A DNA stretch of 64,000 nt from a candidate division WWE3 bacterium CSP1-7 (GCA_001443395.1 LDXK01000001.1:64001-128000); one strand, 5' to 3'. Positions 4,728-62,875 are shown, numbered from the stretch's first letter. Translations and numbers: made by a program. Notes: generated by a model not told the origin, from the sequence alone.

Positions 4728-4759
4728 AATTGCTAGCCCGCTTAGGCGGGCGTCCAATT
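4728..4759. repeat. GAC/TAG internal-loop hairpin element, copy 1
   Basis: aattg-CTA-g-cccgc-ttag-gcggg-c-GTC-caatt. Confidence 0.85.
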
Positions 4760-5915
4760 ATTTAGGAATAATCTCGATCCAAGTTAAGCCTCGGTTGAAA
4801 TTAATTTCGGTGCTCTTCCCCCGCTTGTAGAACTTCATTCGGGCGGAAACAGACGACCGTTTCCAAGTCCCCAAAATTTTGACCCCGTCCAGGTAGATCT
4901 CGGCATTCCCCTGCCCCGTTGTGGTGTAGAGGAGATGGCCTGTTCCGTCCCCGGCCGAGCGCTGGGAGACGTGCGCCAGGACGATGTTTTTGGCGGAGAG
5001 TTGTTTCTTGGTGGCCTGGTCGAGGTGCTTGGCTCCCCCTTGAAAACGGAGGTAGGAATTCGTGGTCCGATCGTAGCGCCATTCTCCCTTGTAGGCCACC
5101 GGGTAGCCCCAGAAACTGAAGGAAATTTTTTGGGCCTTTGGCCGCTGGGCGTAGGGCGATTCCGCCTTGAACTTCCATTGGGAGAAGTTGGGTAAAGTGT
5201 TTGTTCCCTGGTAGAGAGATTGGCCGGCGTTCCAGAGCTTCTGGGTGGAGGTGTAATTGATGTGAGATAGCACCATCCCCCCATTGAAAAGGACATTGCC
5301 GCCGAAGGTGAAGGTAGAGGAACCGAGCCGAAACTGATCGAGATCCAGAACCCCGTGACCGGCAATGTAGTCGTAGATGTTGGCCGGCGAACCATGGGTG
5401 GAAGCTCCGCCGACATGGGCATAGTAGGCCGGAAACTGGAGCGCCCATTGAATGAAATAGACCCGGGAGGAGCGGACGGGTCCGATCTTGGGCACACTCT
5501 GACCGTGAAAGACCGCCAGAAATCTCGTGATGCCGCCCTCGGCCACCGCCTCGTAGATCTGGTCGGCCTTCTGCAGCCCAAACTGATAACGCCGGGCTAG
5601 CGAGTGGTTATCGATCATCACCGCCAGGGGGCGCTTCTTCTGCCAGAACTCGGCCTCACTCTCCGAGTAAAAAGTCCCGCTGATCGGCTGGACAGTTTCT
5701 TTTATCGCGGGATCGGCGAGGGCCACCGCGGGTTTGTTATCGGCGCCTCCCAAAGGATTAATGAACGGGAGGGAAAAATACTGGGCGAGGAGAAGGTATC
5801 CCCCGCCGGCCGTAAAAACAAAAAGGAACCATCCCGTCAGAAGAATTCCGCGGCGATGGTTTCTCAGGAATCCCACGAAATTAGACCAATATTTACTCAA
5901 TCGTTCACGCATCAC
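4758..5915 (-). CDS. DUF3048-family (YerB-like) membrane-anchored protein
   Basis: N-terminal transmembrane segment; RPLAVMIDN, EGGITRF, GPVRSSR motifs. Confidence 0.85.
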   Translation of the reverse strand: MMRERLSKYWSNFVGFLRNHRRGILLTGWFLFVFTAGGGYLLLAQYFSLPFINPLGGADNKPAVALADPAIKETVQPISGTFYSESEAEFWQKKRPLAVMIDNHSLARRYQFGLQKADQIYEAVAEGGITRFLAVFHGQSVPKIGPVRSSRVYFIQWALQFPAYYAHVGGASTHGSPANIYDYIAGHGVLDLDQFRLGSSTFTFGGNVLFNGGMVLSHINYTSTQKLWNAGQSLYQGTNTLPNFSQWKFKAESPYAQRPKAQKISFSFWGYPVAYKGEWRYDRTTNSYLRFQGGAKHLDQATKKQLSAKNIVLAHVSQRSAGDGTGHLLYTTTGQGNAEIYLDGVKILGTWKRSSVSARMKFYKRGKSTEINFNRGLTWIEIIPK

Positions 5916-6053
5916 GCTTTACTGGACTAGTAACCTCAAATCGTACCCTTTCATTACTCAATGTAACAAGATTGGAATCGGGGTTGCAAGTGCTGTCCTC
6001 GCTTACGCTCGGTTGCACTAATTACTCGCTAGCGCTGCGTCATTAGTTCCGAG

Positions 6054-6085
6054 AAGGACGGCTTGGCTACGCCAAACCTAGCCTT
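6054..6085. repeat. GAC/TAG hairpin element, copy 2
   Basis: aag-GAC-g-gcttggc-tac-gccaaac-c-TAG-cctt. Confidence 0.7.
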
Positions 6086-6105
6086 AGCTTTGCTAAAGTT
6101 AAACC

Positions 6106-6399
6106 GTGGCTAAGAAAACCCGCCAAGAGAAGGATCTGGCCCGGCTCCGTCGGCAGATAGAAGTGCTAAGGGCCCAAAACAGCGAGCGTTCCCATGACTA
6201 CTCCCCTCCCCCGCGGGAGGTGCAAGAAGAAAGCAAGCCGGGAAAATCTACGGAACCACCGATCAAGAATTTGGAAATCAGAAAAGTCGCCCCTAAATTT
6301 ATTAAAGCCGATCTGCTCAAAACCATCGTCCTCTCTTTGGCGGCGCTGGCAGTTATCGCCGCTTTATATCTGTTGCGCAATCAAATTCCTTTCCTCTAG
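6106..6399 (+). CDS. Hypothetical protein with a C-terminal transmembrane helix
   Basis: GTG-start ORF filling the gap; DLLKT followed by a hydrophobic helix. Confidence 0.65.
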   Translation: MAKKTRQEKDLARLRRQIEVLRAQNSERSHDYSPPPREVQEESKPGKSTEPPIKNLEIRKVAPKFIKADLLKTIVLSLAALAVIAALYLLRNQIPFL

Positions 6400-6443
6400 A
6401 GTTCTTCTCTCGGTCGGTATTGGACAAGAAGTACAATCCCGGC

Positions 6444-7976
6444 CTAGAGTTCTTCCCTAGGCCGGTATTGGAGAGCCTCGGCGACGTGTTCGGGAAGAAT
6501 ATTGGAAACTCCGCCCAGGTCGGCAATTGTTCGAGCAACTTTCAGAACTTTGTGGTAAGCCCGAGCTGACAACGCCATTTGAGAAACGGCCTGCCGGATC
6601 AATGTCTGCGCTTCTTCGGTTGCCTGGCAATAAACTTGGACCTCTTTGGATGAGAGCTCTCCATTGCTGTAAATCCTCTTACCCCGGTACCGCGCCAGTT
6701 GAATATCGCGGGATGCCTGAACCCTCTGCCGAATAATCCGGCTAGACTCTCCTTGCCGGCTTCTATCATCCTGCATCAATTTCTCCGTCTTCACTGCCGG
6801 AACTTCAACGTGAAGATCAATTCGATCCAAAATTGGACCGGATATTTTCTTCTTGTACTGCGATATCTGGTGAGCGGTGCAAGTACAGTTCCGCCGCGGG
6901 TCGCCGAGATACCCGCAGGGGCAGGGATTCTCCGCCGTCACCAAAATAAACTTAGCCGGAAAAGCAATCGTCCCGGCCGCCCTCGAGACCGTCACGATCC
7001 CGTCTTCCAACGGCTGCCGCAACGCCTCCAAAACGTGGCGGGGAAACTCCGGAAATTCATCCAAAAATAGTATCCCCCGATGAGAAAGAGAGATTTCTCC
7101 GGGAGAGGGATGAGTCCCTCCCCCGATCAGACCAATCCTAGAGGTGGTGTGATGGGGAGAACGAAAAGGCCGCCGCTTTATCAGTGCTTCTCCGACGGGG
7201 AGATTTCCCGAGATGGAATAGATCTTGGTAACTTCCAACGCCTCGTCCGGAGTGAGCTGCGGCAAGATCGAGGGCAACGATCGCGCCAGGAGAGTCTTTC
7301 CGGCTCCGGGAGGACCGGATAACCGAAGGTTATGACCGCCGGCGGCTGCAATTTCGAAAGCCCGTTTTGCCTGTTCCTGGCCAAGAATATCGGAAAAATC
7401 AAAATCCGCTTCTTCTTCCCCAATCAAATCAGCGATTTCGGCGGTCTCGGCGTGGCTAATCAATTTCAATCCTAGGAAGTGCTGGATCAAATCATAGAGA
7501 GTTGGAACCGGGTAAACCTGAACCCCATGCACCAGCGAAGCTTCCGCCGCATTGGCAGCCGGCAAAAATATCTTTCGGATCCCCTCTTCTTTGGCAAGAA
7601 GGGCCGCCGGCAGCACTCCCGGGGTGTGGCGAAGAGAACCATCCAGAGAGAGTTCCCCTAAGACCATAATTTCTTCCGATTTTAGATCAATCTGGCCGGA
7701 AGCAATCAGAATTCCCATCGCAATCGGCAGGTCATAATAGGAGCCTTCTTTCTTTAAATCGGCGGGAGCAAGATTAACGGTGATTCGGTAGTCGGGAAAA
7801 TCGGCCTTGGTATTAACGATCGCCGAACGAACTCTTTCGCGGCTTTCTTCCACCGCTTTATCAGGCAGGCCGACAATCGTAAAAGCGGGGAAACCGCGTT
7901 TCTCAATATCCACCTCAACTTTTACCGGAATGGCGTTCAGACCGACCGTGGCCGCGGAAATAACTTTCGCCAGCAT
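6444..7976 (-). CDS. comM: YifB/ComM-family Mg-chelatase-like AAA+ ATPase
   Basis: VGLPDKAVEES, NLAPAD, GPPGAGKT, LFLDEFPEF, NPCPCG motifs. Confidence 0.93.
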   Translation of the reverse strand: MLAKVISAATVGLNAIPVKVEVDIEKRGFPAFTIVGLPDKAVEESRERVRSAIVNTKADFPDYRITVNLAPADLKKEGSYYDLPIAMGILIASGQIDLKSEEIMVLGELSLDGSLRHTPGVLPAALLAKEEGIRKIFLPAANAAEASLVHGVQVYPVPTLYDLIQHFLGLKLISHAETAEIADLIGEEEADFDFSDILGQEQAKRAFEIAAAGGHNLRLSGPPGAGKTLLARSLPSILPQLTPDEALEVTKIYSISGNLPVGEALIKRRPFRSPHHTTSRIGLIGGGTHPSPGEISLSHRGILFLDEFPEFPRHVLEALRQPLEDGIVTVSRAAGTIAFPAKFILVTAENPCPCGYLGDPRRNCTCTAHQISQYKKKISGPILDRIDLHVEVPAVKTEKLMQDDRSRQGESSRIIRQRVQASRDIQLARYRGKRIYSNGELSSKEVQVYCQATEEAQTLIRQAVSQMALSARAYHKVLKVARTIADLGGVSNILPEHVAEALQYRPREEL

Positions 7977-10550: not shown

Positions 10551-11773
10551 TAGACTTGGGATTCAAACCGAGCTTCGCGGATCACGACCACCCTTACTCC
10601 TCCCGGTGTGACAACTTGATCCTTAATCCGCTTGCCGATCTCCTGGACCAACTGCGCCGAACGTTCATCGGAAACCTCCCCGGCCTTCACGATCACTCGA
10701 AGTTCCCGGCCGGCGGTAATCGCATAGGCATCATCAACTCCGGAAAAAGACTTGGCGATGTTTTCCAGGTCGGTCACTCGTTTGACGTACCCCTCAATAT
10801 CCTCGTAACGAGCTCCGGGACGGGAGCCGGAAATGGCATCGGCGATGTAAACCAATTCGGCTTCGATCGATTTCTTTTCCTCCCGGCCGTGGTGGGAAGC
10901 CGCCGCGTTGACCAGTTTTTCCGGAAATCCAAAACGTTCCAGAATCTTTCTGGTCAAGATGTCATGGGGCTCACCGGATTCGGAGGTTGCCACCTTGCCG
11001 ATGTCGTGAAAAAGAGCCGCGGCCTTAGCGAGCTCCACATCCGCCCCCACCTCCGCCGCCAGATAACTCACCAGCTTAACCATTTCCAGAGAGTGCTTCG
11101 CCAGATTTTGACCGTAGGAGGTCCGAAACTTGAACCGGCCTAAGAGCTCAACAATCCCGCCGGGCAGCCCTCCCAAGCCTGTTTCCAACGCCAGCTGTTC
11201 TCCTTCGCGGCGGATCTCGTGATCGATGTCACCTTTAACCGAGGAAACGACGGTTTCGATGTTCTCGGGCTGGAAGCGATCCTCCTTGATGAGCCGTTCC
11301 AGGGAGAGACGAGCGATGTGCCGGCGGACCGGGTCAAACGAGGAAATCCGCACCGCTTTCGGAGATTCCTCCAAGTCCAACTCCACTCCCGTCGCCCGTT
11401 CGAAAGCCCGGACGTTGCGGCCCTCCTTGCCGATGATTTTGCCCTTCCAATCTTCGGATGGAAGCTCCACCACCGAAACGGTAAATTCCGCCACGTAGGA
11501 AGTGGCAGCGTGCTCCATCGCAGAAACGAGAATGTCGCGGCTGCGATCCTCCGATTCCGCTTTGATCTGCTCCTCCACCTCAGCCATCCGCTGCGCTTTC
11601 TCATTCACCAACTCCTGGTCCAACTCCTTGAGAATCATCTTGCGCGCATCTTCCCGCGATAACGCGGCCGACTTCTCGAGCTCTTTCAGGTATTTTTCTT
11701 TCAGTTGTTCGACGGAGAGATTATCCGGAGACTCCGGACTTTCCGAAGGGTCTTTGATTTTTTTGTCTTTCAT
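10550..11773 (-). CDS. rny: Ribonuclease Y (no clear N-terminal membrane anchor)
   Basis: KGKIIGKEGRN KH motif, HDIG HD motif, ADAISGSRPGAR. Confidence 0.93.
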   Translation of the reverse strand: MKDKKIKDPSESPESPDNLSVEQLKEKYLKELEKSAALSREDARKMILKELDQELVNEKAQRMAEVEEQIKAESEDRSRDILVSAMEHAATSYVAEFTVSVVELPSEDWKGKIIGKEGRNVRAFERATGVELDLEESPKAVRISSFDPVRRHIARLSLERLIKEDRFQPENIETVVSSVKGDIDHEIRREGEQLALETGLGGLPGGIVELLGRFKFRTSYGQNLAKHSLEMVKLVSYLAAEVGADVELAKAAALFHDIGKVATSESGEPHDILTRKILERFGFPEKLVNAAASHHGREEKKSIEAELVYIADAISGSRPGARYEDIEGYVKRVTDLENIAKSFSGVDDAYAITAGRELRVIVKAGEVSDERSAQLVQEIGKRIKDQVVTPGGVRVVVIREARFESQV

Positions 11774-11784
11774 TTTGGTTTACC

Positions 11785-11818
11785 AAAATGCTAGGGCGTT
11801 TCTGCGCCCGTCCATTTT
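11785..11818. repeat. GAC/TAG hairpin element, copy 3
   Basis: aaaatg-CTA-g-ggcg-tttctg-cgcc-c-GTC-catttt. Confidence 0.88.
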
Positions 11819-11838
11819 TTTGCATCCTTCTTTGTAAA

Positions 11839-12861
11839 TTATACCTTTTCCCGGATCGCTTCCTCGACTTGAGAGCTCAGCTTGGAATCCTTCACGAACA
11901 TTTCCCGAGTGGCGTCGCGGCCCTGCCCCAGTTTTTTACCCTTGAATTCGTACCAGGTCCCGGTTTTGGAAAGAACCTCCAACTTCTCGCCCCAATCAAC
12001 GATTTCCCCCACCCGATCAATTCCCTCGTTGAAAATCAGATCAAATTCGGCCTGGCGGAAGGGAGGGGCAACCTTGTTCTTAACCACCTTCACTCGGACG
12101 CGCGAACCGACCGCTTCCTCCCCCTTCTTGAGGGTTGCGATCCGGCGGATATCCAACCTCACCGAAGAATAAAACTTCAGCGCCAATCCCCCCGGAGTCG
12201 TTTCCGGGTTGCCGAAGAGCACCCCGATTTTTTGCCGGATCTGGTTGGTGAAAACCATCGTGCAGTTTGTTTTGGAGAGAATGCCGGCCAGCTTTCGCAA
12301 CGCTTGGGACATCAACCGAGCCTGTCGACCCAAGTGCAGATCCCCCATCTCTCCCTCAATCTCGGCTTGCGGAGTAAGGGCCGCCACGGAATCGATCGCG
12401 ACCAGGTCCACCGCCCCGGAACGAACCAAGGTTTCGGCAATCTGCAGAGCCTGTTCCCCGGTGTCGGGTTGGGAGAGCAGCAGGTCATCCACGTTAACCC
12501 CCAACTTCTTCGAATAATCCGGGTCCAGGGCGTGTTCGGCATCAATAAACGCAGCGGTTCCGCCCGCCTTTTGAACCTGGGCGATGATGTTCAAGACGAG
12601 GGTCGTCTTTCCGGATGCTTCAGGACCAAAGATCTCTGTGACTCTCCCTTTGGGAACCCCCCCGATCCCTAGGGCAATATCCAAACCCAAGGAACCGGTG
12701 GAAATCGCCGCCACCCGGCCGGCATGAGAGGCAATGGATTCACCCAACTTCATAATCGAACCGCGACCGAAAGATTTTTCGATCTGCTCGATCGCGCTTT
12801 CCAGCGCGCGGGTTTTTCCGGAGGAAGGAGATTCGGTGGTTTTTTCTGAAGCTTTCGGCAT
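11839..12861 (-). CDS. recA: Recombinase RecA
   Basis: [27 protein letters not shown] motifs; start likely ATG 12861. Confidence 0.98.
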
Positions 12862-12925
12862 CCTCTTGATGGTAATGCCTTTAGGGATAGATTGCAAATG
12901 AAAAAGGAGCTAGATTTGATGTCAT

Positions 12926-13357
12926 CTAGCCCCTCACAAACATCTCCACTGCCAGCTGCACCAGTTGAGACTTGATTTCGGCCGTCATTTGGCGTGAGAG
13001 CAGTCGATAGGCGGGATGTTTCATCGCCACCACCGGCACACTGATCGCCATCGACGCCACCGCTCTCTGCGCCACGCTCCCGCATGTCAGAACCACACTG
13101 GGCTGGATGCGGTGAATGACTCGCCTCAGGTGCACCAAATCGGCCGGAAAAACTCCATCGGGAGAATCGGCCAAGGTAGGATTGGCGTTGCAGACCTTCA
13201 CTTCGAAGATATCGGTCGGCAGCGCTTCCTGGAGACGAATCCCGGTGCGCGACAGCCACAGTTCCCGGCGCCACACCCGAGGATTCCAACCGTTCGAGAG
13301 TCCTCCCTTGCGCCAAGGGCACTGGAGGACGACCAGGAGGACGGGCTTCGACTTCAT
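12926..13357 (-). CDS. Uracil-DNA glycosylase-like small protein
   Basis: VVLTCGSVA...MKHPAYR resembles the C-terminal motif of the UDG superfamily; ATGA overlap with the upstream gene. Confidence 0.5.
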   Translation of the reverse strand: MKSKPVLLVVLQCPWRKGGLSNGWNPRVWRRELWLSRTGIRLQEALPTDIFEVKVCNANPTLADSPDGVFPADLVHLRRVIHRIQPSVVLTCGSVAQRAVASMAISVPVVAMKHPAYRLLSRQMTAEIKSQLVQLAVEMFVRG

Positions 13358-13704
13358 TCCGAGTACCCTTCGTAGACGAAGAAACGGAGCACCGTGACTC
13401 TGTCGTGCCACGTCAAATCCGGATAGCGATGCCGGAGAGACTCCGCCAGGAGATAGAGATCCGAGAACCCCAGCTCCTTGACGTCCTCTTCGGGAACCTC
13501 GGCGAGGGAACAGGAATTCCGATTCCTCAAAACCGAATGGAAACCGTCTTCATCCCGATCGACCAGCACCACCGAATCGAACAGTTTCAGATCAGACTCG
13601 CCGGCAACGAGCACCGTGACCTCAATCCCAGGCTCCAGCCGCTCCTTCGAACGGATGACGGAACCATCCCCGAGACGGATCCTGGAAGTCTTGTCCGCAG
13701 GCAT
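13354..13704 (-). CDS. ASCH/PUA-like domain protein
   Basis: LAEVPEEDVKELGF...LRHRYPDL...DRVTVLRF resembles the ASCH C-terminus; AGGGGCG SD-like sequence upstream. Confidence 0.55.
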   Translation of the reverse strand: MPADKTSRIRLGDGSVIRSKERLEPGIEVTVLVAGESDLKLFDSVVLVDRDEDGFHSVLRNRNSCSLAEVPEEDVKELGFSDLYLLAESLRHRYPDLTWHDRVTVLRFFVYEGYSE

Positions 13705-13848
13705 CGCCCCTCCCTTTCCCCTTGTTTTTAGGACTTAAGTATATCCGGGAAAGTGGAAAATTCAAGGGAGAGAGGATAGAATTGGAGAAGCTTCGGGGCG
13801 TAAGGCCTTGCTTCGCAAGGACCATGCCCCCCGATTCGCCGTGCTCAT

Positions 13849-13923
13849 CGGGGCGTAGGTCATCGGTAGACCGCTCGCATGGGGTGCGAGAGGTAGTGGG
13901 TTCAATTCCCGCCGCCCCGACCA
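13849..13923 (+). tRNA. tRNA-Pro(GGG)
   Basis: CGGGGCG/CGCCCCG acceptor stem, anticodon arm CTCGC-ATGGGGT-GCGAG, GGTTCAATTCC T-arm, encoded CCA. Confidence 0.96.
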
Positions 13924-13944
13924 GATTAATCCCAGTTTGAAAGG

Positions 13945-14550
13945 TTAAGCCTTAAAGTTCTCTTCAACCTGATCCCAATTCACGACGTTCCACCAGGCCT
14001 CGATGTATTCCGGCCGGCGGTTTTGATACTGGAGATAGTAGGCGTGCTCCCAGATGTCCAAACCCAAGAGGGGGGTTAGACCCTGGGAAAGAGGCGAATC
14101 CTGGTTGGGGGTTGGCACGACCGAAAGTTTTCCGTCCCCGCTTTTGACCAACCAAGCCCAACCGCTCCCAAAAATCGCCGCGGCAGCATCGCTGAATTTC
14201 TTTTTGAAATCTTCAAAACTGCCAAATTCACTCTTGATGATACCCCCCAGATCACCGCTTGGCTCCCCTCCCCCACTTTTTTTCATCATCTTCCAGAAAA
14301 GCGAGTGGTTAAAGTGTCCCCCACCGTGATTGCGCACCGCGGTGCGAATATCTTCGGGAATCGAATTTAGGTCCTTGAGCAAGTCCTCTAGGGATTTGGG
14401 TTGCAGATCGGGGTATTTTTCCAGAGCCTTGTTCAGCTTCTCCACGTAAGTGGCGTGATGCTTGTCGTGGTGAATCTGCATCGTCTGGGCGTCAATGTAC
14501 GGTTCCAACGCGTCGTAGCTGTAGGAAAGGGGTTGGAGTTCGAAGGCCAT
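13945..14550 (-). CDS. sodA: Fe/Mn superoxide dismutase
   Basis: [23 protein letters not shown] motifs. Confidence 0.96.
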
Positions 14551-14588
14551 TGTTCTACTACTTAACACACTTTTGGCTTAAAATACAA

Positions 14589-15128
14589 ATGATGAAGCGA
14601 ATTTTTCTCGCCGTACCGGTCACTCAAAAGATTATCAGAGAATTGGCAAAAGAAATTGAGAGGCTCAAGAAATCATTACCTGATTGGGAAATAAAATGGG
14701 TCACACCGGAAAATCTTCACATCACTCTCGTTTTCTTTGGCTGGGTTAAAGAAGATCAGATAAAAAATCTCAAGACCGAGATCGAGGCATTGGTTCCAAA
14801 ATCCACACCGTTCCAAATCACGACCGGCAAATTATTCCTAAAAGTAAGACCACTATGGCTCGAAATTGAACAAGGTCGAGAGGAACTTAATCGACTCGCT
14901 GAGGAAATAGGACATCAACTGACCATTAAAGGTTCGCTCAAGGAAGAACGCGGATTCTACCCCCACCTCACTTTAGGGCGGGTTAAGAAGCGAGGCAAGA
15001 TCAAACTACCGTTGGTTCATGAAGAATTTTCTTGGAAAGCAAATCGATTAGTCCTCTACGAAAGCAGATTTGTCCGCAAACAGCGCGTTTATGAGGAGTT
15101 ATTCCCATTCCCTTTGAAAGGGAATTAA
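14589..15128 (+). CDS. thpR: RNA 2',3'-cyclic phosphodiesterase (2H family)
   Basis: Two HxT motifs (HITL, HLTL); RIFLAV start. Confidence 0.9.
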   Translation: MMKRIFLAVPVTQKIIRELAKEIERLKKSLPDWEIKWVTPENLHITLVFFGWVKEDQIKNLKTEIEALVPKSTPFQITTGKLFLKVRPLWLEIEQGREELNRLAEEIGHQLTIKGSLKEERGFYPHLTLGRVKKRGKIKLPLVHEEFSWKANRLVLYESRFVRKQRVYEELFPFPLKGN

Positions 15129-15220
15129 AACAGGCCTGTTTTATTATATATAGTATACTATTAGATAACGGGGCTTGACTAGAGCAGTTTTGGCAGTTCT
15201 ATCCTTTAGCGCTTGGAATA

Positions 15221-15290
15221 TTGGACGCGACCTTGTCGCTAGAAATTTTGCGAAGCAAAATTTAACGGCCGCGGACGCATCCTAGCAGTA
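15221..15290. repeat. GAC/TAG hairpin element, copy 4, plus an AT-rich palindrome and a collapsed copy
   Basis: ttg-GAC-g-cgac-ctt-gtcg-c-TAG-aa; aattttgcgaagcaaaatt; GGACGcatcCTAGCA. Confidence 0.7.
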
Positions 15291-15297
15291 TTCTTCG

Positions 15298-15702
15298 CTA
15301 ACGCTTCGAATACTGTGGCCGCTTGCGGGCTTTCTTGAGGAAATATTTCTTTCTCTCTTTTTCGCGGGGGTTGCGAGTCATCAAGCCGGCATCGCGCAAT
15401 GGCTTGCGCAGGTCTCCATTGAAAAGGACGAGAGCTCGGGAAATTCCCAAGACGATAGCGTCCAATTGACCAACCTTACCTCCCCCCTCCGCCCGGGCAA
15501 CAAAGTAAAATTTATCTTCCGTTCCGGTCGCTCTGTAAGGCAAAACCAACTTGGCTTGGAAAGAATCAATCGGAAAATATTTAGAAACGGGGGTGCCGTT
15601 CACAGTTGATTCCCCTTTTCCGGCGAACAACCGGACCGTGGTGGTCGCTTCCTTCCTTCGGCCGATCGCTTGATAAAATTTTCCTTGCTTTTTTTCTGAC
15701 AT
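15298..15702 (-). CDS. rpsI: 30S ribosomal protein S9
   Basis: GRRKEA, GGGKVGQ, KARKRPQYSKR motifs. Confidence 0.97.
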   Translation of the reverse strand: MSEKKQGKFYQAIGRRKEATTTVRLFAGKGESTVNGTPVSKYFPIDSFQAKLVLPYRATGTEDKFYFVARAEGGGKVGQLDAIVLGISRALVLFNGDLRKPLRDAGLMTRNPREKERKKYFLKKARKRPQYSKR

Positions 15703-15703
15703 T

Positions 15704-16162
15704 TTATTTCTTTAAAATGCTAGGTTCGGCGTTAGCCGAGCCGTCCATTTTTACCTTACCGATCATCTCCCCTTCTTCCCCGGGGTACACGAATAGCCGG
15801 GTGATCATTCTACTGCCAAGTTTGTTCTTGGGCAGCATTCCCAACACCGCATGGCGGATAATCTCCTGCGGCCGCCGCTTCCTTAACTCTCCTAGATTCT
15901 CCGATTTTAATCCGCTCGGGTACCCGGAGTAGCGGAAGTAGCGCTTTTGGGTTTCTTTCTTGCCGGTTACCTCAATTCTGGCCGCATTTTTAACGACAAC
16001 GTAATCTCCCTGGTCGAGATAAGGAACCCAATCCGTTTTCTCCTTTCCAATTAGGAGTCGGGCAATTTTGGTCGCCAGGCGACCCAGGACCTGATCTTTG
16101 GCATCGAAGAGGTACCAACTTCGTTCGACTTTATCTTCACTTCGCTTTTGCGGTTTTGGCAT
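15704..16162 (-). CDS. rplM: 50S ribosomal protein L13
   Basis: LGRLAT, GDYVVVKNA, GMLPKN motifs. Confidence 0.96.
   Translation of the reverse strand: MPKPQKRSEDKVERSWYLFDAKDQVLGRLATKIARLLIGKEKTDWVPYLDQGDYVVVKNAARIEVTGKKETQKRYFRYSGYPSGLKSENLGELRKRRPQEIIRHAVLGMLPKNKLGSRMITRLFVYPGEEGEMIGKVKMDGSANAEPSILKK
15714..15751. repeat. GAC/TAG hairpin element, copy 5, inside the rplM 3' end
   Basis: aaaatg-CTA-g-gttcggc-gtta-gccgagc-c-GTC-catttt. Confidence 0.88.
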
Positions 16163-16553
16163 TTTTTGTTCCTTTCTTGGTAGGCTTTTTCACGCTCCCA
16201 GTTTTAGCTACCACCTTCGGCTTTGCTTTCGCCGGTTTGATCTCTTCGACAAATTCCACCCGCGCCTGCGGTGCCCGGTCGCCGCGCCGATAGGAGAGTT
16301 TAACAACTCGGACGTAGCCCCCGATCCGTTGGCTGAATTGGGGAACAATCTGGTCGATGAATTTCTGCGCCGCTCCCTTCTTGGTAAAAAGCGCCAGGGC
16401 CTTCCGCCTGGTAACAAGATTCAAATTTTTGGAACGCGAAATTAGTCGGTCAATTTCCCGTTTGAGAGCTTTTGCCTTGGCTTCGGTTGTGACAACTTTT
16501 TCGGAAGAGACCAGAGAGGTGAGGAGTTGGCGCATCGGTGACGATCCTTTCAT
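16137..16553 (-). CDS. rplQ: 50S ribosomal protein L17
   Basis: TTEAKAK, GGYVRVVK, RRGD motifs; position after rpoA. Confidence 0.92.
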   Translation of the reverse strand: MKGSSPMRQLLTSLVSSEKVVTTEAKAKALKREIDRLISRSKNLNLVTRRKALALFTKKGAAQKFIDQIVPQFSQRIGGYVRVVKLSYRRGDRAPQARVEFVEEIKPAKAKPKVVAKTGSVKKPTKKGTKNAKTAKAK

Positions 16554-16556
16554 AAC

Positions 16557-17321: not shown

Positions 17322-17329
17322 TATCTTGA

Positions 17330-17360
17330 ATAGGACGCCCGCCTCAGGCGGACTAGCTAT
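17330..17360. repeat. GAC/TAG hairpin element, copy 6
   Basis: atag-GAC-g-cccgcc-tca-ggcgga-c-TAG-ctat. Confidence 0.85.
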
Positions 17361-17363
17361 CCG

Positions 17364-17945
17364 CTAACGCGAATAGTATTCGATCACCATCTTCTCGTTG
17401 ACCTCGGGACCAATTTCTTCCCGAGCCGGAAAGGCGGCGATCCTGGCAATCATTTCCTTCTTGTCCACTTTTATCCAGGAAGGACGGATCACTTCATCGT
17501 AAATGATTGCACCTTTTTTAGCAAAGGTAATTTTATCACCAACCGCAACCAAAAGCGACGGGATCGTCACTCGCCTTCCATTCACCTTCACCAAACCGTG
17601 GGCCGCCATCTGTCGAGCGTGCGGACGAGTGCTGGCAAAACCGGCACGGTAGAGCACGTTGTCCAACCGCCGTTCCAAAAGCTGGAGCAAGACTTCCCCG
17701 GTTTTTTCTTTACTGCCAAGGGCATTCTTGAAATAGCGTTGGAACTGTCCTTCCCGAACCCCATAGATCCGTTTGGCCTTCTGTTTTTCGCGAAGCTGAA
17801 GACCATACTCGGAAAGGCGACGACGGAAAGCACCGTGCTGACCGGGAGCGGACATCCTCGTTTTGACCGGACAATTGTCGCGGCCGCAGAGCGGAACGCC
17901 TTCGCGCCGGCAGAGTTTGTGGGTGGGACCGGTGTATCTACCCAT
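17364..17945 (-). CDS. rpsD: 30S ribosomal protein S4
   Basis: MGRYTGP, QLREKQK, LERRLDN, EYYSR motifs. Confidence 0.97.
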   Translation of the reverse strand: MGRYTGPTHKLCRREGVPLCGRDNCPVKTRMSAPGQHGAFRRRLSEYGLQLREKQKAKRIYGVREGQFQRYFKNALGSKEKTGEVLLQLLERRLDNVLYRAGFASTRPHARQMAAHGLVKVNGRRVTIPSLLVAVGDKITFAKKGAIIYDEVIRPSWIKVDKKEMIARIAAFPAREEIGPEVNEKMVIEYYSR

Positions 17946-17977
17946 TTAAACGCGTCTCCTGTTCTTGGGACGGGGGC

Positions 17978-18012
17978 CATTGGACGGCTCGCCTGCGGCG
18001 AACCTAGCAATG
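17978..18012. repeat. GAC/TAG hairpin element, copy 7
   Basis: cattg-GAC-g-gctcgcc-tgc-ggcgaac-c-TAG-caatg. Confidence 0.88.
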
Positions 18013-18064
18013 TCCCGCTTACTGTCTCCGAACTGAAATTTTGTCATAGTATTTTCTTTATCCA

Positions 18065-18436
18065 TTACACTCTTCGGCGGTTCTTTGGCCGCGGGCCATT
18101 GTGGGGGATCGGGGTCACATCGGTGATCGCTGTGACTTCCAGCCCACCAACTTTTAAGGCTTTGATCGCGGAATCGCGGCCGGGTCCCGGCCCCTTTACC
18201 AAAACAGAAACTTCTTTAACACCCAATTGACGGGCGGATTTCGCGATGGCCTCGGCGGCTTGAGAAGCGGCAAAGGGAGTCGCCTTTTTGGTTCCTTTAA
18301 AACCGGCCGTCCCCGCCGAGCCCCGCACGATCACTCCCCCGACCTCCTCCCCGATTGTAATCAACGTGTTGTTGAAAGTGCAGGTGATGTGGGCTACTGC
18401 TCTTTCCGGTATTTTGCGTTCTTTCTTTTTTGACAT
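18065..18436 (-). CDS. rpsK: 30S ribosomal protein S11
   Basis: [19 protein letters not shown] motifs; start ATG 18436. Confidence 0.96.
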
Positions 18437-18449
18437 TTTTTGTTTATTC

Positions 18450-18481
18450 AAAATGCTAGGTCGTTTCTTCGGCCGTCCATT
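18450..18481. repeat. GAC/TAG hairpin element, copy 8 (34 bp identical to copy 10)
   Basis: aaaatg-CTA-g-gtcg-tttctt-cggc-c-GTC-cat. Confidence 0.88.
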
Positions 18482-18884
18482 AGGTCTTTTCGGACTTCTT
18501 CGCCGCGATCGCGGACTTGCTCGTTCCGGCAATCGCCATCTTCCGACCTCTTCGGGTGCGGGCATTGGTCTTGGTTCTCTGCCCCCGCACCGGCAAACCC
18601 CGGGCGTGTCTCATTCCTCGATAGGACCCGATCTCTTGGAGACGCTTAATATTATTAGCCGTTTCGGCTGCCAGTTCTCCCTCCACCCGGTAACCGCTCT
18701 TCTGAATTACCTCCCTAATCTTACCAACCTGTTCCTCCGAGAGATCTTTGACACGGATCTCGGGTGACACTCCGGCTTCCGCGATAATTTTTTTGGCCAA
18801 AGTGGTACCGATCCCCCGGACGTAGGTGAGGGCCACCTCCACTCGCTTTTCAACCGGTAAATCAACTCCTTCAATTCTTGACAT
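18480..18884 (-). CDS. rpsM: 30S ribosomal protein S13
   Basis: [24 protein letters not shown] motifs. Confidence 0.97.
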
Positions 18885-18926
18885 TTTTATCTTTTAATCA
18901 TCCTTGGACTGTCCTCGCTAAAGCTC

Positions 18927-18959
18927 GGTTGGACGGTCGCCTTAGGTGACCTAGCAATC
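18927..18959. repeat. GAC/TAG hairpin element, copy 9
   Basis: ggttg-GAC-g-gtcgcc-tta-ggtgac-c-TAG-caatc. Confidence 0.88.
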
Positions 18960-18995
18960 TCTCTACACTCGATTGTACAAACATAGTTCTTATAG

Positions 18996-19109
18996 TCATC
19001 CTTGTCTCTGTTTGTGCTTGGGATTCTTGCAAACGACGTAGAGACGCCCCTGGCGCTTAATAATCTTGCAATCTCTGCAAATTTTTTTAACTGATGCTCT
19101 AACTTTCAT
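18996..19109 (-). CDS. rpmJ: 50S ribosomal protein L36
   Basis: Hand translation [37 protein letters not shown]. Confidence 0.97.
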
Positions 19110-19155
19110 TTTCTTTTGAAAGATAGCGATTTCTCATCGCGTCCTTTCATCGTTT

Positions 19156-19398
19156 CTATTTGCTTCGGTAAACAATTCTTCCCCGATTGGGATCGTAGGG
19201 GGATAACTCCACCCGAACCGAATCACCAAGAAGAACTTTGATGCGGTGGATGCGCATCTTCCCGGAAATATGAGCGAGAACCTCCCGGCCCTCCTCCAGC
19301 TCAACCCGAAAAAGAGCATCAGGCAGGGTTTCTTTGACAATCCCGCTCAGTTCCGCTCTTTCTTTCTTTCCAGAAGAGAAACCCTTTGTTTTTACCAT
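19156..19398 (-). CDS. infA: Translation initiation factor IF-1
   Basis: [21 protein letters not shown] motifs. Confidence 0.97.
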
Positions 19399-19408
19399 AT
19401 CAATCCTG

Positions 19409-20194: not shown

Positions 20195-20226
20195 AAATTC
20201 AACGGGGTGGTTGGGTATCCAAGAGA

Positions 20227-20493: not shown

Positions 20494-20530
20494 GCTGTTT
20501 AACTATACCCTATCCCCTATACCCTGGTCT

Positions 20531-22468: not shown

Positions 22469-22469
22469 T

Positions 22470-23362: not shown

Positions 23363-23368
23363 AGCGTC

Positions 23369-33871: not shown

Positions 33872-33906
33872 GATTTGGACGCGATTCTTTCGAATCGCTA
33901 ACAATC
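33872..33906. repeat. GAC/TAG hairpin element, copy 11 (TAA variant)
   Basis: gatttg-GAC-g-cgattc-tttc-gaatcg-c-TAA-caatc. Confidence 0.8.
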
Positions 33907-34004
33907 TCATTCCATTCGATTGAACGAATCATCTTACCAGAGCCAGGATAACGGAGCAACCGGCAAAATAGCAAACGACTAGACGCAGGATTTAAACTAA
34001 GAAG

Positions 34005-34964: not shown

Positions 34965-35987
34965 ATGGCGAAAAACGCTAGGGTCTTTCAGCCGCCGAGC
35001 CTTGCTGACCTTTATAGGAAGCATGAAAGCCTGCGAGTTTGGCGCGTCAAAAGCCTGAAGCGGCACCACGAGAAGAGCCGCCGCCTCCGTCAGCGCCGCA
35101 ACTTCAAGCGCTATCGCATCCGGATAATCGCCCGCCTACCGGGGGTAACCGTCTGGAGCATAGACGCGGATGCCCTTCGCGAAGGACTGGAAAAAGGCGA
35201 TGTGGATTTCACGATGGGCGGGCACGGATACACCCACCTCTATATCCCCCCAAATGAAATCTGGATCGCCAACGACCTACGGCGGCGTTCTGTCGTGCCG
35301 ACAATCTGGCACGAATACTTTGAACGGTTGCTGATGCGCGGGGGGATGCACTACAACACCGCCCACTCCCTCGCCTCTCGGCTGGAAATCACTCATCGGG
35401 AGGGAACCTACTTTGTTCTGCCGGTCGGAACTCATCACCAGAGAGAAGATGGCTTCTGCTTGCCGGCGACGCTCAAGATCTACCTAAGCTATCTGGGCCG
35501 GAACTTCTCCGAAGGACACCTTGCTCGGCTCTGCAAAACCACGGTCGAAAATGGCACCGATCCGATCAACGTCGTCACCGCGGTGCGCCGCCTTGGTTTC
35601 AGGGTCCAACATCGGGGCCGACCGCTGATGCTTCGGGAAATTCAGCGTTACTGCTCGGCCGCCGGAGCCAAGGGCAAGGAAAGGAAAGAGCTGACCAATC
35701 AAGTTCGCCGGCAAGCGGGCACCGTTCGGGTCCATCAAGCCTGGACCGCCGCGGAAGTCAAGAAGTCCCTCAAAAAGGGGCGGCCGGTCCTCGCCAACAT
35801 CCAACTTAGCCGGGAGTACAAAAGCGGGCACTATCTAGTGGTCATCGGCTACACCAGCAACACCTTCGTCGTCAGTGACCCGAACGACGATAACGGTTAC
35901 CGGGAAATCCCGATCCCCGAGTTCATGAAGCTCTGGTATGAACTTGAGGACGGCACCGTTCGCGAAGGTTTTACAATCTCGTCTTAG
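34965..35987 (+). CDS. Paralogous HExxE/H domain plus C39-like peptidase fusion
   Basis: DFTMGGHGY, WHEYFER, QREDGFCLPATL, GHY, SDP, LWYELED motifs shared with the upstream gene. Confidence 0.75.
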   Translation: MAKNARVFQPPSLADLYRKHESLRVWRVKSLKRHHEKSRRLRQRRNFKRYRIRIIARLPGVTVWSIDADALREGLEKGDVDFTMGGHGYTHLYIPPNEIWIANDLRRRSVVPTIWHEYFERLLMRGGMHYNTAHSLASRLEITHREGTYFVLPVGTHHQREDGFCLPATLKIYLSYLGRNFSEGHLARLCKTTVENGTDPINVVTAVRRLGFRVQHRGRPLMLREIQRYCSAAGAKGKERKELTNQVRRQAGTVRVHQAWTAAEVKKSLKKGRPVLANIQLSREYKSGHYLVVIGYTSNTFVVSDPNDDNGYREIPIPEFMKLWYELEDGTVREGFTISS

Positions 35988-35990
35988 CGA

Positions 35991-36023
35991 GATTGCTAGG
36001 TTCGCGAAGCGATCCGTCCGATC
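35991..36023. repeat. GAC/TAG hairpin element, copy 12
   Basis: gattg-CTA-g-gttcgc-gaa-gcgatc-c-GTC-cgatc. Confidence 0.82.
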
Positions 36024-36031
36024 TTCAACTG

Positions 36032-51571: not shown

Positions 51572-51599
51572 ATCATCTCTCCTTTCTTAACCAGCGTCC

Positions 51600-51628
51600 A
51601 TTGGACGCTCGCTAGCGAGCTAGCAATT
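51600..51628. repeat. GAC/TAG hairpin element, copy 13
   Basis: attg-GAC-g-ctcgc-ta-gcgag-c-TAG-caat; an inverted half-site GCGTCCA lies just upstream. Confidence 0.85.
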
Positions 51629-51731
51629 CTCGCTAACTCTCCAATTGTAAACGCCGGTGCAAGTATCTTGTTATATCCTATCATTATATTGACTATAGGT
51701 CAAGGGCAGGGGTTATGCTAGGATAGGGATT

Positions 51732-59561: not shown

Positions 59562-59623
59562 GAACTATGGGTTTTACAACCCGGGAAGTTAACTCTGTAT
59601 TCAAAATAGCTATAATCATCTTG

Positions 59624-59658
59624 AAATGGACGCTCTGATGAAACAGAGCTAGCATTTT
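59624..59658. repeat. GAC/TAG hairpin element, copy 14
   Basis: aaatg-GAC-g-ctctg-atgaaa-cagag-c-TAG-cattt. Confidence 0.88.
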
Positions 59659-59670
59659 AAAAGAAATAAA

Positions 59671-61782
59671 ATGTCTACCAGATATCGCCGGCGCGCAATG
59701 AGAATCAATCTCAAGGATGAGAGCTTCCAATCCACTATCGGGATAATCCTAGTGGTCTTTTCAATCCTGGCAGTCCTCTCATTCTTTGGCCAAGCCGCCG
59801 GATTTGGTTCTTTTCTCCAGGACTACCTCAACCGGATATTCGGCTGGGGCGCTTTCATGTTCCCCATCGTGACAGGACTCCTAGGTTTGGTCCTGCTTCG
59901 CCTCAGAGTCAAAATCCCCTTTGTCGAAATTCGGATCTTCTACGGATTGGTGATCCTCTATATCTCTCTATTGGGATTGTTCCACTTCTTCTTCTCAACG
60001 GAGGTATCGCAATACCAAGCCAGTATTGGACAGGGAGGAGGCCTAACCGGTTACTATGTCCAGCTGATCCTCCGCCGCATCTTCTCGACGATCGGCGCCT
60101 TCCTTGTTCTCTCGGCCGGGGGCACCGTCGGAATCCTGGTAACGCTGAACATCTCCTTCGACGAAGCCCTATTCTATCTCGCCAAAGTCGCCCAGAAGAT
60201 TGGTCGATTGATCCAGGAAAATATCTGGCGCGGGAAAGATTTCAAGGAGCCGTTGCGGCCTTCGGTGAATAGGGAAGCATCCGAGACCAAACCCGAGGCC
60301 TCCTCGGAGGGGGAAGAAATTGAGATCGCCACCCCCTACTCCGCCCCAACCACCCAGATCACGACTCCGCGCCGCAAACTGACCTGGGAATACCCGTCGC
60401 TGGACCTGCTCAATGATCCTTCCGAAACTGCGGCCGAACGGGGTGATATCGAAAAGAACGCCCAACTGATTGAACAGACTCTGGAATCATTTGGAGTAAA
60501 AGCCCGGGTCGCTGATATCAATCTCGGCCCGACCGTTACCCAGTATGCTTTGGAGGCCGAGCGCGGCACTAAACTCTCCGCTATCACCAACCTCTCCTCC
60601 GATCTGGCTCTCGCGCTTGCTTCCAAAACCGGAACGGTCCGAATTGAGGCCCCAATTCCCGGAAAATCTCAAGTGGGGGTGGAGGTTCCCAACCTCAAAC
60701 CGCAGCTGGTCACGTTGAAAGAAATTATCACCTCGGACCAATTAGGAGAGGGGGCCCACAAACTAGCGGTTGGGTTGGGACGGGACGTTTCGGGAGCATC
60801 AATCGTTGATGATCTTGATCGAATGCCACACATTCTGATTGCGGGAGCGACCGGATCCGGTAAATCCATCATGCTTCGCACGATCCTGGCGACGATTCTT
60901 TTCCGAGCTTCCCCGGAAGAAGTTCGCCTGATCCTGGTCGACCCCAAGCGGGTAGAATTTTCCCATTACAACGGAATTCCCCACCTTCTCATGCCGGTGA
61001 TTGTCGAACCCGAAAAAACTCTCCCGGCCCTGAAGTGGGCGATGGCGGAGATGAACAAACGCTACAAACTTTTCCAAGAATCGGGAGTTCGCGACATCGG
61101 TGATTACAACGAAAAGGCCGAGGAAAAAATGCCCTACGTTCTGATCGTGGTCGACGAACTCGCCGATATCATGGTCGTCGCTCCGGCCGAAGTGGAGAAA
61201 GCTATCACCCGCCTGGCCCAGATGGCCCGGGCCACAGGATTGCACTTGATTCTGGCAACCCAGCGTCCCTCCACCGACGTTCTCACCGGATTGATTAAAG
61301 CAAACATCCCCTGCCGCATCGCCTTCAATGTCACTTCCCAAATTGACTCGCGAGTAGTTCTCGACATGCCGGGAGCGGAAAAACTGCTTGGCAAAGGAGA
61401 CATGCTCTACCTTCCCCCCGATCGCTCCAAACCGATTCGAATCCAGAGTCCTTTTGTCTCAAACGAGGAGATGAACCGGCTCCTCGAGTTCCTCAAAAAT
61501 TCAGGATGGGCCCCCGACTATGTCGTGGAAGAGCAGGTGGAAGAGATGGAGCGACAGGTCGAAAGGATGGGAGAGCCGACCGATCCCCTCTTCGCTGAAG
61601 CGGTTGAAATTGTGATCCAATACGAGCGGGCCTCGGCTTCCCTCCTGCAGCGCCGCCTCTCGATCGGCTACGCCCGCGCGGCTCGGATTCTGGATGAGTT
61701 GGAAACGCGGGGAATCGTGGGGCCGGCGGAGGGCAGCAAACCCCGAGAGGTATTGCGGCGCAATACCGAGGAGATACTCTGA
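59671..61782 (+). CDS. ftsK: DNA translocase FtsK/SpoIIIE
   Basis: N-terminal transmembrane domain, GATGSGKS, DELAD, ATQRP, gamma domain SLLQRRLSIGYARAAR. Confidence 0.97.
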   Translation: MSTRYRRRAMRINLKDESFQSTIGIILVVFSILAVLSFFGQAAGFGSFLQDYLNRIFGWGAFMFPIVTGLLGLVLLRLRVKIPFVEIRIFYGLVILYISLLGLFHFFFSTEVSQYQASIGQGGGLTGYYVQLILRRIFSTIGAFLVLSAGGTVGILVTLNISFDEALFYLAKVAQKIGRLIQENIWRGKDFKEPLRPSVNREASETKPEASSEGEEIEIATPYSAPTTQITTPRRKLTWEYPSLDLLNDPSETAAERGDIEKNAQLIEQTLESFGVKARVADINLGPTVTQYALEAERGTKLSAITNLSSDLALALASKTGTVRIEAPIPGKSQVGVEVPNLKPQLVTLKEIITSDQLGEGAHKLAVGLGRDVSGASIVDDLDRMPHILIAGATGSGKSIMLRTILATILFRASPEEVRLILVDPKRVEFSHYNGIPHLLMPVIVEPEKTLPALKWAMAEMNKRYKLFQESGVRDIGDYNEKAEEKMPYVLIVVDELADIMVVAPAEVEKAITRLAQMARATGLHLILATQRPSTDVLTGLIKANIPCRIAFNVTSQIDSRVVLDMPGAEKLLGKGDMLYLPPDRSKPIRIQSPFVSNEEMNRLLEFLKNSGWAPDYVVEEQVEEMERQVERMGEPTDPLFAEAVEIVIQYERASASLLQRRLSIGYARAARILDELETRGIVGPAEGSKPREVLRRNTEEIL

Positions 61783-62225: not shown

Positions 62226-62649
62226 TAACGGGGGGTTCAACCAGTTTGCGGTCGGATTGGTGGTCGGGGCGATCTTGGGAGTTCTCTACGCTCCCAAGGA
62301 GGGTAAAGAATCTCGGCAGGCCCTCAAGGAACTTCTTAAAGTTTGGGAAGAAAAAGCCGGAGAGATAACCGGAGAGGTTAAGGAAAAGGTGGTCGAGGTC
62401 CGGGAGGCTGCCCAACCAATCATCAACGAGATCAGGCCAATCGTGCAGGAAAAAGTGAGCCAAGCCGCGGAGCTAATTGAACCGATCGCTCAGGATGTCG
62501 CCAAAGAAACCGAAGAAAAAATGGCCGAGGTTGTCGACCCGGTAATTGAAAGGGCTAAGGCCGAACTTAATCAAACAGTGGAACAGGTTCGTCAAGAAAT
62601 CCGAGAAAACATCCAGAAGCCCCATCCCAAATTCTTCCGAGGAGTTTAA
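62212..62649 (+). CDS. YtxH-domain protein
   Basis: FAVGLVVGAILGVLYAPKEGKESR. Confidence 0.85.
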   Translation: MEQNNNGGFNQFAVGLVVGAILGVLYAPKEGKESRQALKELLKVWEEKAGEITGEVKEKVVEVREAAQPIINEIRPIVQEKVSQAAELIEPIAQDVAKETEEKMAEVVDPVIERAKAELNQTVEQVRQEIRENIQKPHPKFFRGV

Positions 62650-62653
62650 AGCA

Positions 62654-62688
62654 AAAATGGACGGCCGCCCGAGGCGACCTAGCATTTT
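62654..62688. repeat. GAC/TAG hairpin element, copy 15
   Basis: aaaatg-GAC-g-gccgcc-cga-ggcgac-c-TAG-catttt. Confidence 0.88.
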
Positions 62689-62705
62689 CTGTTGAAAACA
62701 AAAAT

Positions 62706-62823
62706 GTTCCGGCGATGACCTGCTCTCCCAGACCCGAAGGCCAAGTACCATCAGCGCTAGAGGCTTTTACGACCGAGTTCGGAATGGGATCGGGTAGTTC
62801 ACCTCCGCTCAAATCACCAGAAC
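62706..62823 (-). rRNA. rrf: 5S rRNA
   Basis: Reverse complement contains ACCCGATCCCATTCCGAACTCGG...GATGGTACT...GGGAGAGCAGG. Confidence 0.96.
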
Positions 62824-62840
62824 ATTTCTACCTTCAAGGT

Positions 62841-62875
62841 AAAATGCTAGCTCTGTTTCTTCAGAGCGTCCAATT
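62841..62875. repeat. GAC/TAG hairpin element, copy 16
   Basis: aaaatg-CTA-g-ctctg-tttctt-cagag-c-GTC-caatt. Confidence 0.88.

Follow-up and report, generated by a model that had tools for sequence, protein, structure and literature searches.

A two-hairpin repeat of about 45 nucleotides in a candidate division WWE3 genome, read as a lineage-specific, non-autonomous mobile module

A stretch of 64,000 nucleotides from the candidate division WWE3 bacterium CSP1-7 (GCA_001443395.1, LDXK01000001.1:64001-128000; hereafter the window) carries numerous copies of a short structured repeat, which we have followed through the genome and its relatives. In our numbering the window is G000:C1:64001-128000, where G000 is the genome (572 kb in 7 contigs, 53% G+C, 80%-complete) and C1 the contig. 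We read the repeat family as a lineage-specific, very small, non-autonomous mobile module of the kind formed by repetitive extragenic palindromic (REP) sequences, Rickettsia palindromic elements (RPEs) and double-hairpin elements. This reading is based on the number of copies, their restriction to one bacterial family, their turnover between relatives, their assembly into arrays, their occurrence in both orientations and the presence of a copy in frame within a gene. The copies are thus probably mobile selfish DNA rather than a dedicated signal. An earlier note, made from the sequence of the window alone, had proposed a structure-defined REP-like element, and the abundance, lineage restriction and indel polymorphism of the copies support that proposal. 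Its alternative of a protein-binding site, taken alone, leaves the insertion polymorphism unexplained.

Structure, abundance and distribution of the unit

The earlier note had listed about 16 copies, and the motif is present at all 16 positions. In an alignment of these copies GGACG and C-TA are invariant, with TAA instead of TAG in the copy at 33872, and the two distant copies said to be identical over 34 bp prove to be those at 18450 and 25712. Both stems had been described as covarying, and they do: within the two helices as first drawn, 88.3% of cells are paired versus 63.2% in column shuffles, a level reached by none of 500 shuffles, and both sides vary in 8 of 11 pairs. Across 97 distinct copies from six or more genomes the pairing is 90.3% versus 63.4% after shuffling, with both sides varying in 10 of 11 pairs, in an alignment that was fitted to the covariance model and is therefore biased towards the structure. 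The motif is also far more frequent than in shuffled DNA, with 45 structured GACG...CTAG sites in G000 versus a mean of 1.66 structured exact-motif sites (maximum 6) in 50 dinucleotide shuffles of this genome. A covariance model built from the 16 copies, as the earlier note had suggested, yields 88 matches at E<=1 in the 572 kb, and the 73 matches scoring at least 21 bits form the basis of the anatomical counts given below.

No described family was recognised at the outset, and none has emerged. At the gathering score, Rfam matched only 23S rRNA, 5S rRNA and one tRNA in the 64-kb window, and at E<=1 it gave no matches in positions 15000-19300, which hold 7 copies. Our literature search likewise found no description of such a repeat for Patescibacteria or the candidate phyla radiation.

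Copies are written here on the strand that reads GAC...TAG, which gives the order flank a, GAC, first hairpin (hp1), TAG, b, loop and c. The unit proper is GAC-hp1-TAG-b-loop-c, and it mostly measures 42-45 nt from GAC to the end of c. GC-rich and closed by a G-C pair, hp1 has C.A as its third pair in 38 of 73 copies, every other position being Watson-Crick in at least 85%, and overall C.A outnumbers G.T by 44 to 5. Segment c complements b and, with flanks aligned in one orientation, repeats a. The complementarity of b and c defines a second hairpin, hp2: an exact b:c complement of at least 5 nt lies directly after TAG in 57 of 73 copies, compared with 8.9% for shuffled downstream sequence. 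Flank a usually ends in TG, and its last six bases are identical to c at five or more positions in 29 of 57 copies. At least five of six Watson-Crick pairs can be drawn between a and b in 28 of 73 copies, a number that falls to 1 of 73 once a is shifted by 10 nt. By these strict tests 24 copies show both pairings, 33 show b:c only, 4 show a:b only and 12 show neither, although several of these 12 have an imperfect hp2.

The layout proposed earlier stands in placing GAC and TAG around an inner hairpin, but not in treating the outer stem as an intrinsic part, and it missed both c and hp2. An outer stem a:b appears because a usually resembles c and b pairs with c. Similarly, GAC and TAG are conserved as claimed, but with a:b pairing reaching five of six pairs in just those 28 copies, they are better termed linkers flanking hp1 than a near-fixed 3x3 internal loop.

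Units also form head-to-tail arrays, in which the c of one unit doubles as the a of the next and the b of the next unit need not pair. Such tandem arrays are present in G000 and in the related genomes G001, G003 and G009, and they grow by new units joining after the c of a resident unit. Three pairs of opposite orientation were noticed (Table 1). In the nested form, the opposite core lies within the hp2 loop of the first (CAATAG GAC..TAT CTATTG [TTA..GTC] CAATAG), and one nested pair represents a single 58-nt insertion relative to G000.

The scan of related genomes that the earlier note had called for reveals a sharply bounded distribution. Matches occur in all 9 other genomes of the same family (E<=0.01), at 32, 72 and 101 per genome in three of the same genus and at 1-19 in six other genera, and at the same threshold there are none in 31 genomes from 16 sister families of the same class. 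The GAC and TAG linkers, hp2, the C.A mismatch and arrays all recur in other genera of the family. When a species-representative collection was searched with a specific pattern, the only records found were metagenome-assembled genomes titled 'Patescibacteria group bacterium' or 'uncultured bacterium', and viral contigs gave no match to the pattern.

Gain, loss and placement of units

Element flanks were mapped both ways between G000 and G002, a relative with 83% completeness. Among the 73 copies in G000, 38 could be mapped by both flanks and 7 by one, and 28 had no match in the compared part of G002. The comparison of filled and empty sites, also proposed by the earlier note, shows extensive polymorphism: 21 of 37 merged orthologous intervals are filled in G000 only, and in the reverse mapping 16 of 36 are filled in G002 only, with equal numbers of units in just 7 of the G000-based and 11 of the G002-based intervals. 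We extracted 25 clean indels of 36-58 nt. For example, positions 17334-17376 are a clean 43-nt insertion between GAATAG direct repeats where G002 has a single GAGTAG, and the unit at G000:C2:62858 sits after an AAAATG hexamer that G002 retains once. At the junction of the L16 and L29 genes (25712) the stop and start codons are 5 nt apart in G002, G000 has one unit and G003 has two, and between rpoA and S4 four tandem units are found in G003. In the empty alleles of sites where a unit is fused to a start codon, stop and start are adjacent.

Units insert directly 3' of a short flank a that resembles their own end c, and this resemblance gives rise to the a/c direct repeat. At sites filled in both genomes a, b and c are conserved and hp1 is sometimes wholly different (C2:62966, C1:68725 and C1:82448), which amounts to a swap of hp1 alone within constant GAC/TAG surroundings. 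Contigs from 4 DNA runs gave no clean empty allele, and many of these contigs end or join at units. Contigs from the public DNA runs X19 and X20 contain a variant allele of the 18927 copy (18891-18970) with several small indels and substitutions.

The cleanest insertion lies outside the window, where a 45-nt unit is found in frame within ribosomal protein L10 (G000:C5:15808-15846) and adds 15 residues, GLDGSLDEPSNLAGV. This unit is absent from G002, G001 and G007. The empty DNA allele reads GGAGAATTA joined directly to GAGGGTCC, and the filled allele has a 45-nt GAC-hp1-TAG-CAACCTCG..CGGTTG unit. Its left flank is unpaired with b, whose partner c lies further downstream as part of the insertion itself; therefore, c comes with the unit and the left flank need not pair with b. 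An in-frame copy is likewise present in an AAT-family protein. In G003, L10 has a different 12-residue insert at the same spot, plus a second, GC-rich insert of 10 residues further on.

Placement relative to genes is far from uniform. In 29 of 73 copies an open reading frame (ORF) of at least 50 aa begins at the NTG of c, and this codon is ATG in 25 of the 29; we call these copies start-fused. Another 18 have antisense orientation in gaps between co-directional genes, and 12 have sense orientation without being fused, several of these 12 being upstream members of arrays. The remaining copies occupy divergent gaps (6), convergent gaps (4) and the interior of called genes (4). Both orientations had been reported within the minus-strand operons of the window, and this is what we find, the ribosomal-protein cases being L13/S9, rpoA/S4, S4/S11, S13/S11 and L16/L29. 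The L13 frame (15704-16162, minus strand) has no stop before the unit at 15712-15753 and runs through it to a TAA within hp2, 1 nt before the start of S9, and G002 is arranged alike.

RNA genes are affected as well. The 5S rRNA gene (62707-62821, minus strand) has a unit on either side, each pointing towards the gene, and in the tRNA spacer at G000:C2:54830-55160 the sequence of c, GCAGGTG, doubles as the 5' acceptor strand of the tRNA gene that follows. In G002 there is no unit in the 23S-5S spacer and there are two downstream of 5S. Compared with G002, the tRNA spacer has one more unit and an extra segment between two tRNA genes.

The leaders of start-fused genes, such as those at 11771, 15700, 18434 and 59673, are A-rich (AAGAAAYAAAATG) and lack a GGAGG-type Shine-Dalgarno sequence, which is present in other genes such as the one downstream of 4714; both observations were made by eye and are uncounted. 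We considered and rejected the idea that the old ATG opens a short upstream ORF ending before the new ATG. A stop is located in the unit in 20 of 25 cases, compared with 21 and 16 of 25 in control frames, and the pattern is thus unspecific.

The copies in the window are collected in Table 1, together with the opposite-oriented pairs found elsewhere. In G002, the sites at L011 ~2620-2700 and 3540-3640, orthologous to 17978 and 18927, both have a different, AT-rich repeat (GCAAATTAACAATT ... TTGTTAATTGATAATTGAT) in place of the antisense units.

Table 1. Copies of the module in the window and opposite-oriented pairs in G000 and G002
Feature	Position	Strand	Remarks
Module between two minus-strand genes, sense, not start-fused	4714..4760	-	a TAATTG; core 4733-4754; hp2 CAATTTTT..AAAAATTG; orthologous G002 site has another hp1 and the same a, b and c
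Module with imperfect hp2 (CCTTAGC TTT GCTAAAG)	6051..6098	+	core 6057-6081; orthologous G002 interval empty
Start-fused module downstream of recA	11771..11818	-	ATG of c (11771-11773) starts RNase Y-like gene
Module antisense to operon	15218..15263	+	core 15224-15242; hp2 AAATTTTGC..GCAAAATTT
Start-fused module	15700..15751	-	ATG of c starts ribosomal protein S9; conserved in G002
Module antisense between rpoA and S4	17328..17376	+	unit 17334-17376
Copy with long a:b stem (GGCCATTG/CAATGTCC), c undetected	17977..18015	+	antisense between S4 and S11
Start-fused module	18434..18483	-	ATG of c starts ribosomal protein S11; hp1 differs at same G002 site
Module antisense upstream of S13	18926..18975	+	different repeat at site in G002
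Possible 17th copy, degenerate (GACG..CTAT)	19119..19147	-	conserved in G002 (19.9 bits there)
Start-fused module between L16 and L29	25694..25745	-	ATG of c starts L29; absent in G002
Module, TAA variant, antisense	33872..33922	+	6 nt from EF-G start codon; 45-nt insertion versus G002
Module	35974..36024	-	8-bp hp2 CAATCTCG..CGAGATTG
Module in divergent intergenic gap	51598..51647	+	
Start-fused module	59623..59673	+	ATG of c starts FtsK-like gene
Module abutting 5S rRNA 3' end	62654..62706	+	points into 5S
Module in 23S-5S spacer	62823..62876	-	c ends 1-2 nt before 5S 5' end; 48-nt indel, absent in G002
Nested pair	G000:C5:18194-18259		opposite orientation, 18194/18223
Nested pair	G000:C3:51655-51718		opposite orientation, 51655/51678
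Nested pair	G002 L037:6050-6157		opposite orientation, 6050

Mechanism of spread and rival explanations

With a copy of its target as its last part, a unit rebuilds any feature that started there, and this applies to start codons, to the 5' acceptor strand of a tRNA gene and to the 5S rRNA boundary. Surviving copies would for this reason gather at gene starts and at the ends of RNA genes, and the same rebuilding would explain the persistence of the in-frame L10 copy. By analogy with IS200/IS605 and with REP/RAYT systems, the unit might move as a folded single strand. A trans-acting enzyme would then hold the unit by the first hairpin and its GAC/TAG feet, and guidance would come from b, which would pair with the target a as well as with c at the end of the unit, in the manner of IS200/IS605 ends. 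This HUH/guide mechanism is the model of movement that we prefer, but we offer it tentatively and put its probability well below even.

The sole HUH candidate in G000 is an orphan RAYT-like Y1 gene (G000:C1:146028-146675, 215 aa), whose protein scores 33.8 bits with Pfam PF01797 (cut-off 23) and 56.9 bits with NCBIfam REP_Tyr_transpos, under the cut-off of 80. This gene lies 18 kb beyond the end of the window; within the window there is no transposase, and the earlier note had likewise reported no cognate one there. Two GGGGTTGAACCCC hairpins precede the Y1 gene (G000:C1:145860-146675) and are found nowhere else in the genome. The closest homologue of its protein, at 70% identity, is from another genus of the family, and homologues from the same genus are 37-38% identical. 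G000 also encodes one tyrosine recombinase (C3:55484-56392), which matches only the Phage_integrase and SAM-like N-terminal domains, both generic. A unit at G000:C3:55365-55406 lies within ~80 nt of the recombinase gene, a proximity that may be due to chance given 73 copies. Reverse transcriptase and TnpB families were not found in this 80%-complete genome.

A bolder version of the HUH/guide mechanism would make the repeat a 'programmable' single-strand transposon of ~45 nt, in which hp1, GAC, TAG and the C.A mismatch would form the handle for the orphan Y1 or another enzyme and b would be the guide. Insertion would be scarless for start codons, tRNA ends and rRNA ends, b and c would change together to generate new specificities, and hp1 would be an exchangeable cassette. 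We regard this version as speculative and doubtful. If it were true, no smaller mobile element that bears a guide would be known, and this one would belong to an organism whose genome measures 0.6 Mb.

Several observations weigh against the view of the copies as a mobile module, and in particular against one moved by an enzyme. Indel boundaries vary, with exact direct repeats of 0-14 nt, and several indels differ from the empty allele in a few bases to the left of GAC. Such variable boundaries mean that microhomology-driven copying fits as well as an enzyme. Most of the indels are without outgroup polarity, and deletion between a and c may account for some of the 'empty' sites. The earlier note had suggested looking for an HUH/RAYT gene flanked by the element, but no enzyme could be linked to it in this way: around 16 Y1 genes, including 8 in the element-bearing family, no element was detected at E<=1 within ~1.5 kb. 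Homologues of Y1 are spread over 25 of the 41 class genomes, some of these being from element-free families, and G002 has 72 elements but no detectable Y1 gene at its 83% completeness. There is no orientation bias relative to the replication strand (33 versus 27, for contigs C1-C3 with the leading strand inferred from GC skew, a test confounded by selection at gene starts). Furthermore, the placement counts depend on gene calls from our own crude ORF model, and the comparison with G002 covered ~300 kb of ~500 kb, at 85-90% identity in the syntenic ribosomal region.

The most serious rival explanation is that the same module spreads without a dedicated enzyme, either by hairpin-stalled replication and microhomology-mediated template switching or by short-tract gene conversion. 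One period of a donor array would be copied into sites that share a few bases with c, and hp1 would be swapped likewise. The variable indel boundaries and direct repeats of 0-14 nt agree with this view, as does a phase-shifted insertion at a gene that starts with ATGGACG (G002 L041:6689), where the repeat is [A/G]ACG, and taken together they fit enzyme-free copying about as well as they fit the enzyme model. The replacement of hp1 between conserved flanks of ~10 nt, the expansion and contraction of tandem arrays, the lack of a linked transposase and the RecA encoded in the window point in the same direction. However, dozens of first insertions per genome since the split between relatives of 85-90% identity are many for untargeted illegitimate recombination in 0.57 Mb. 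Moreover, GAC, TAG and a C.A mismatch at a specific position are conserved across genera, which suggests recognition by a protein. On balance we judge spread without a dedicated enzyme to be a rather unlikely explanation.

It is much less probable that the module is mainly an RNA signal in 5' leaders and spacers, working as a switch between an a:b pairing that keeps the AUG accessible and a b:c pairing that hides it within hp2; a variant of this explanation would have a processing or stability hairpin, with mobility being secondary. The ATG of c is the start codon in 25 of 73 copies, at a fixed distance, the leaders of start-fused genes appear by eye (uncounted) to be without a GGAGG-type Shine-Dalgarno sequence, and copies abut the ends of 5S and tRNA genes. 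Minimum-energy folds of three start-fused copies gave a:b once and hp1 plus hp2 with a buried AUG twice. The predicted energies are similar, and a translational switch is therefore conceivable. Nevertheless, the same genes lack the module in a relative that is 85-90% identical, 18 of 73 copies are antisense within co-directional operons, and one copy lies in frame inside the L10 reading frame. The C.A mismatch is on the would-be RNA strand in 17 of 29 start-fused copies, and there is no Rfam match. Since essential genes are polymorphic for the module, many copies are antisense and one is inserted in L10, we argue that any role as an RNA switch is secondary.

Finally, it is highly improbable that start-fused copies are portable promoters for near-leaderless mRNAs, with TGGACG as a -35-like box, hp1 as spacer and TAGCAT as a -10-like box, for although the two boxes match TTGACA and TATAAT at 4 of 6 positions each (by eye), the spacer measures 15-17 nt, and genes, a tRNA and 5S rRNA begin ~20 nt after TAG, none of the 9 promoter-like sites in a sigma-70-type consensus scan of window positions 11000-27000 is a copy, other subfamilies have TAGCAA, TAGCTT or TAGTTT, some copies are antisense or intragenic, essential genes are polymorphic for the module, and a covarying hairpin in a promoter spacer has, to our knowledge, no known role.

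Relation to known repeats and significance

For the favoured reading as a mobile module, the nearest described kind is the REP superfamily, and the element resembles REP-type repeats while standing outside the described families. It shares with REPs a short, GC-rich hairpin whose stem falls into covarying subfamilies and whose foot bears short tags that are conserved and unpaired, tens to hundreds of mostly extragenic copies with clusters and some copies in genes, and a RAYT-like Y1 gene in the genome. The 88 matches in 572 kb conform to this description, with just 4 of 73 copies inside called genes and the others intergenic or at gene starts. As defined in Di Nocera et al. (2013, PMC3733652), REPs have one terminal GTAG or CGTC tag and mostly form inverted dimers, and GTAG REPs flank RAYT genes; in the same source, head-to-tail arrays are rare, and CGTC REPs also occur without a linked transposase. 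Judged by these written definitions (PMC3733652), the module follows neither the GTAG nor the CGTC scheme, for it has tags on both sides (GAC 5' and TAG 3', or CTA...GTC on the other strand). It also differs in its obligatory second hairpin with a target-mimicking 3' arm, its head-to-tail arrays, its start-codon fusion and the absence of copies flanking Y1 genes (0 of 16 loci). Unlike REPINs, which consist of two inverted REPs in one long hairpin, the units are single or head-to-tail, apart from the three opposite-oriented pairs of Table 1.

In IS200/IS605 elements and the palindrome-associated elements derived from them, a hairpin serves as the handle for the enzyme, and adjacent guide bases pair with the cleavage sites. 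These elements insert 3' of a short target, which is not truly duplicated and which their right end resembles. The module may be comparable in this respect, as its flank a resembles c and b complements both, yet its boundaries vary. Unlike IS200/IS605, one hairpin would have to serve both ends, the putative guide b follows the hairpin on its 3' side with a pairing length of 4-8 nt, neither TnpA nor TnpB adjoins any copy and there is no strand bias.

More distant parallels can be drawn with other small elements. RPEs are ~100-150 bp in length and, like the module with its L10 and AAT-family insertions, are small palindromic repeats that tolerate in-frame insertion into genes. This likeness is one of description, and most module copies are intergenic or at start codons. 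The double-hairpin elements and GC clusters of fungal mitochondria are tiny mobile hairpin repeats with short flanking repeats in compact genomes. They share the two-hairpin build but are organellar and unrelated in sequence, and we know of no description of start-codon regeneration for them. Integron attC sites resemble the module in having a folded strand, a variable terminal hairpin, unpaired bases between paired boxes and possibly a strand-marking mismatch, but the module has no RYYYAAC/GTTRRRY core sites, cassette ORFs or attI, and its units are without an ORF. Miniature inverted-repeat transposable elements also offer a poor match, as the module's ends, GAC... and ...c, are not inverted repeats and the direct repeats are of 0-14 nt.

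In practice, such repeats break short-read assemblies and lead gene callers astray at start codons. The ultra-small genomes of Patescibacteria are regarded as streamlined, and here a 0.57-Mb genome carries ~80 selfish modules of 45 nt whose turnover is faster than that of the surrounding genes. The module separates ribosomal-protein genes that are translationally coupled, provides L13 with a tail and L10 with an insert, and abuts 5S and at least one tRNA gene. A 3' end that mimics the target is a simple rule by which a mobile element can occupy gene starts and leave the genes intact. Should the guide idea hold, DNA-guided target choice of the IS200/IS605 type would extend to a single-hairpin element, and the widespread orphan Y1 genes of Patescibacteria might have found a possible substrate.

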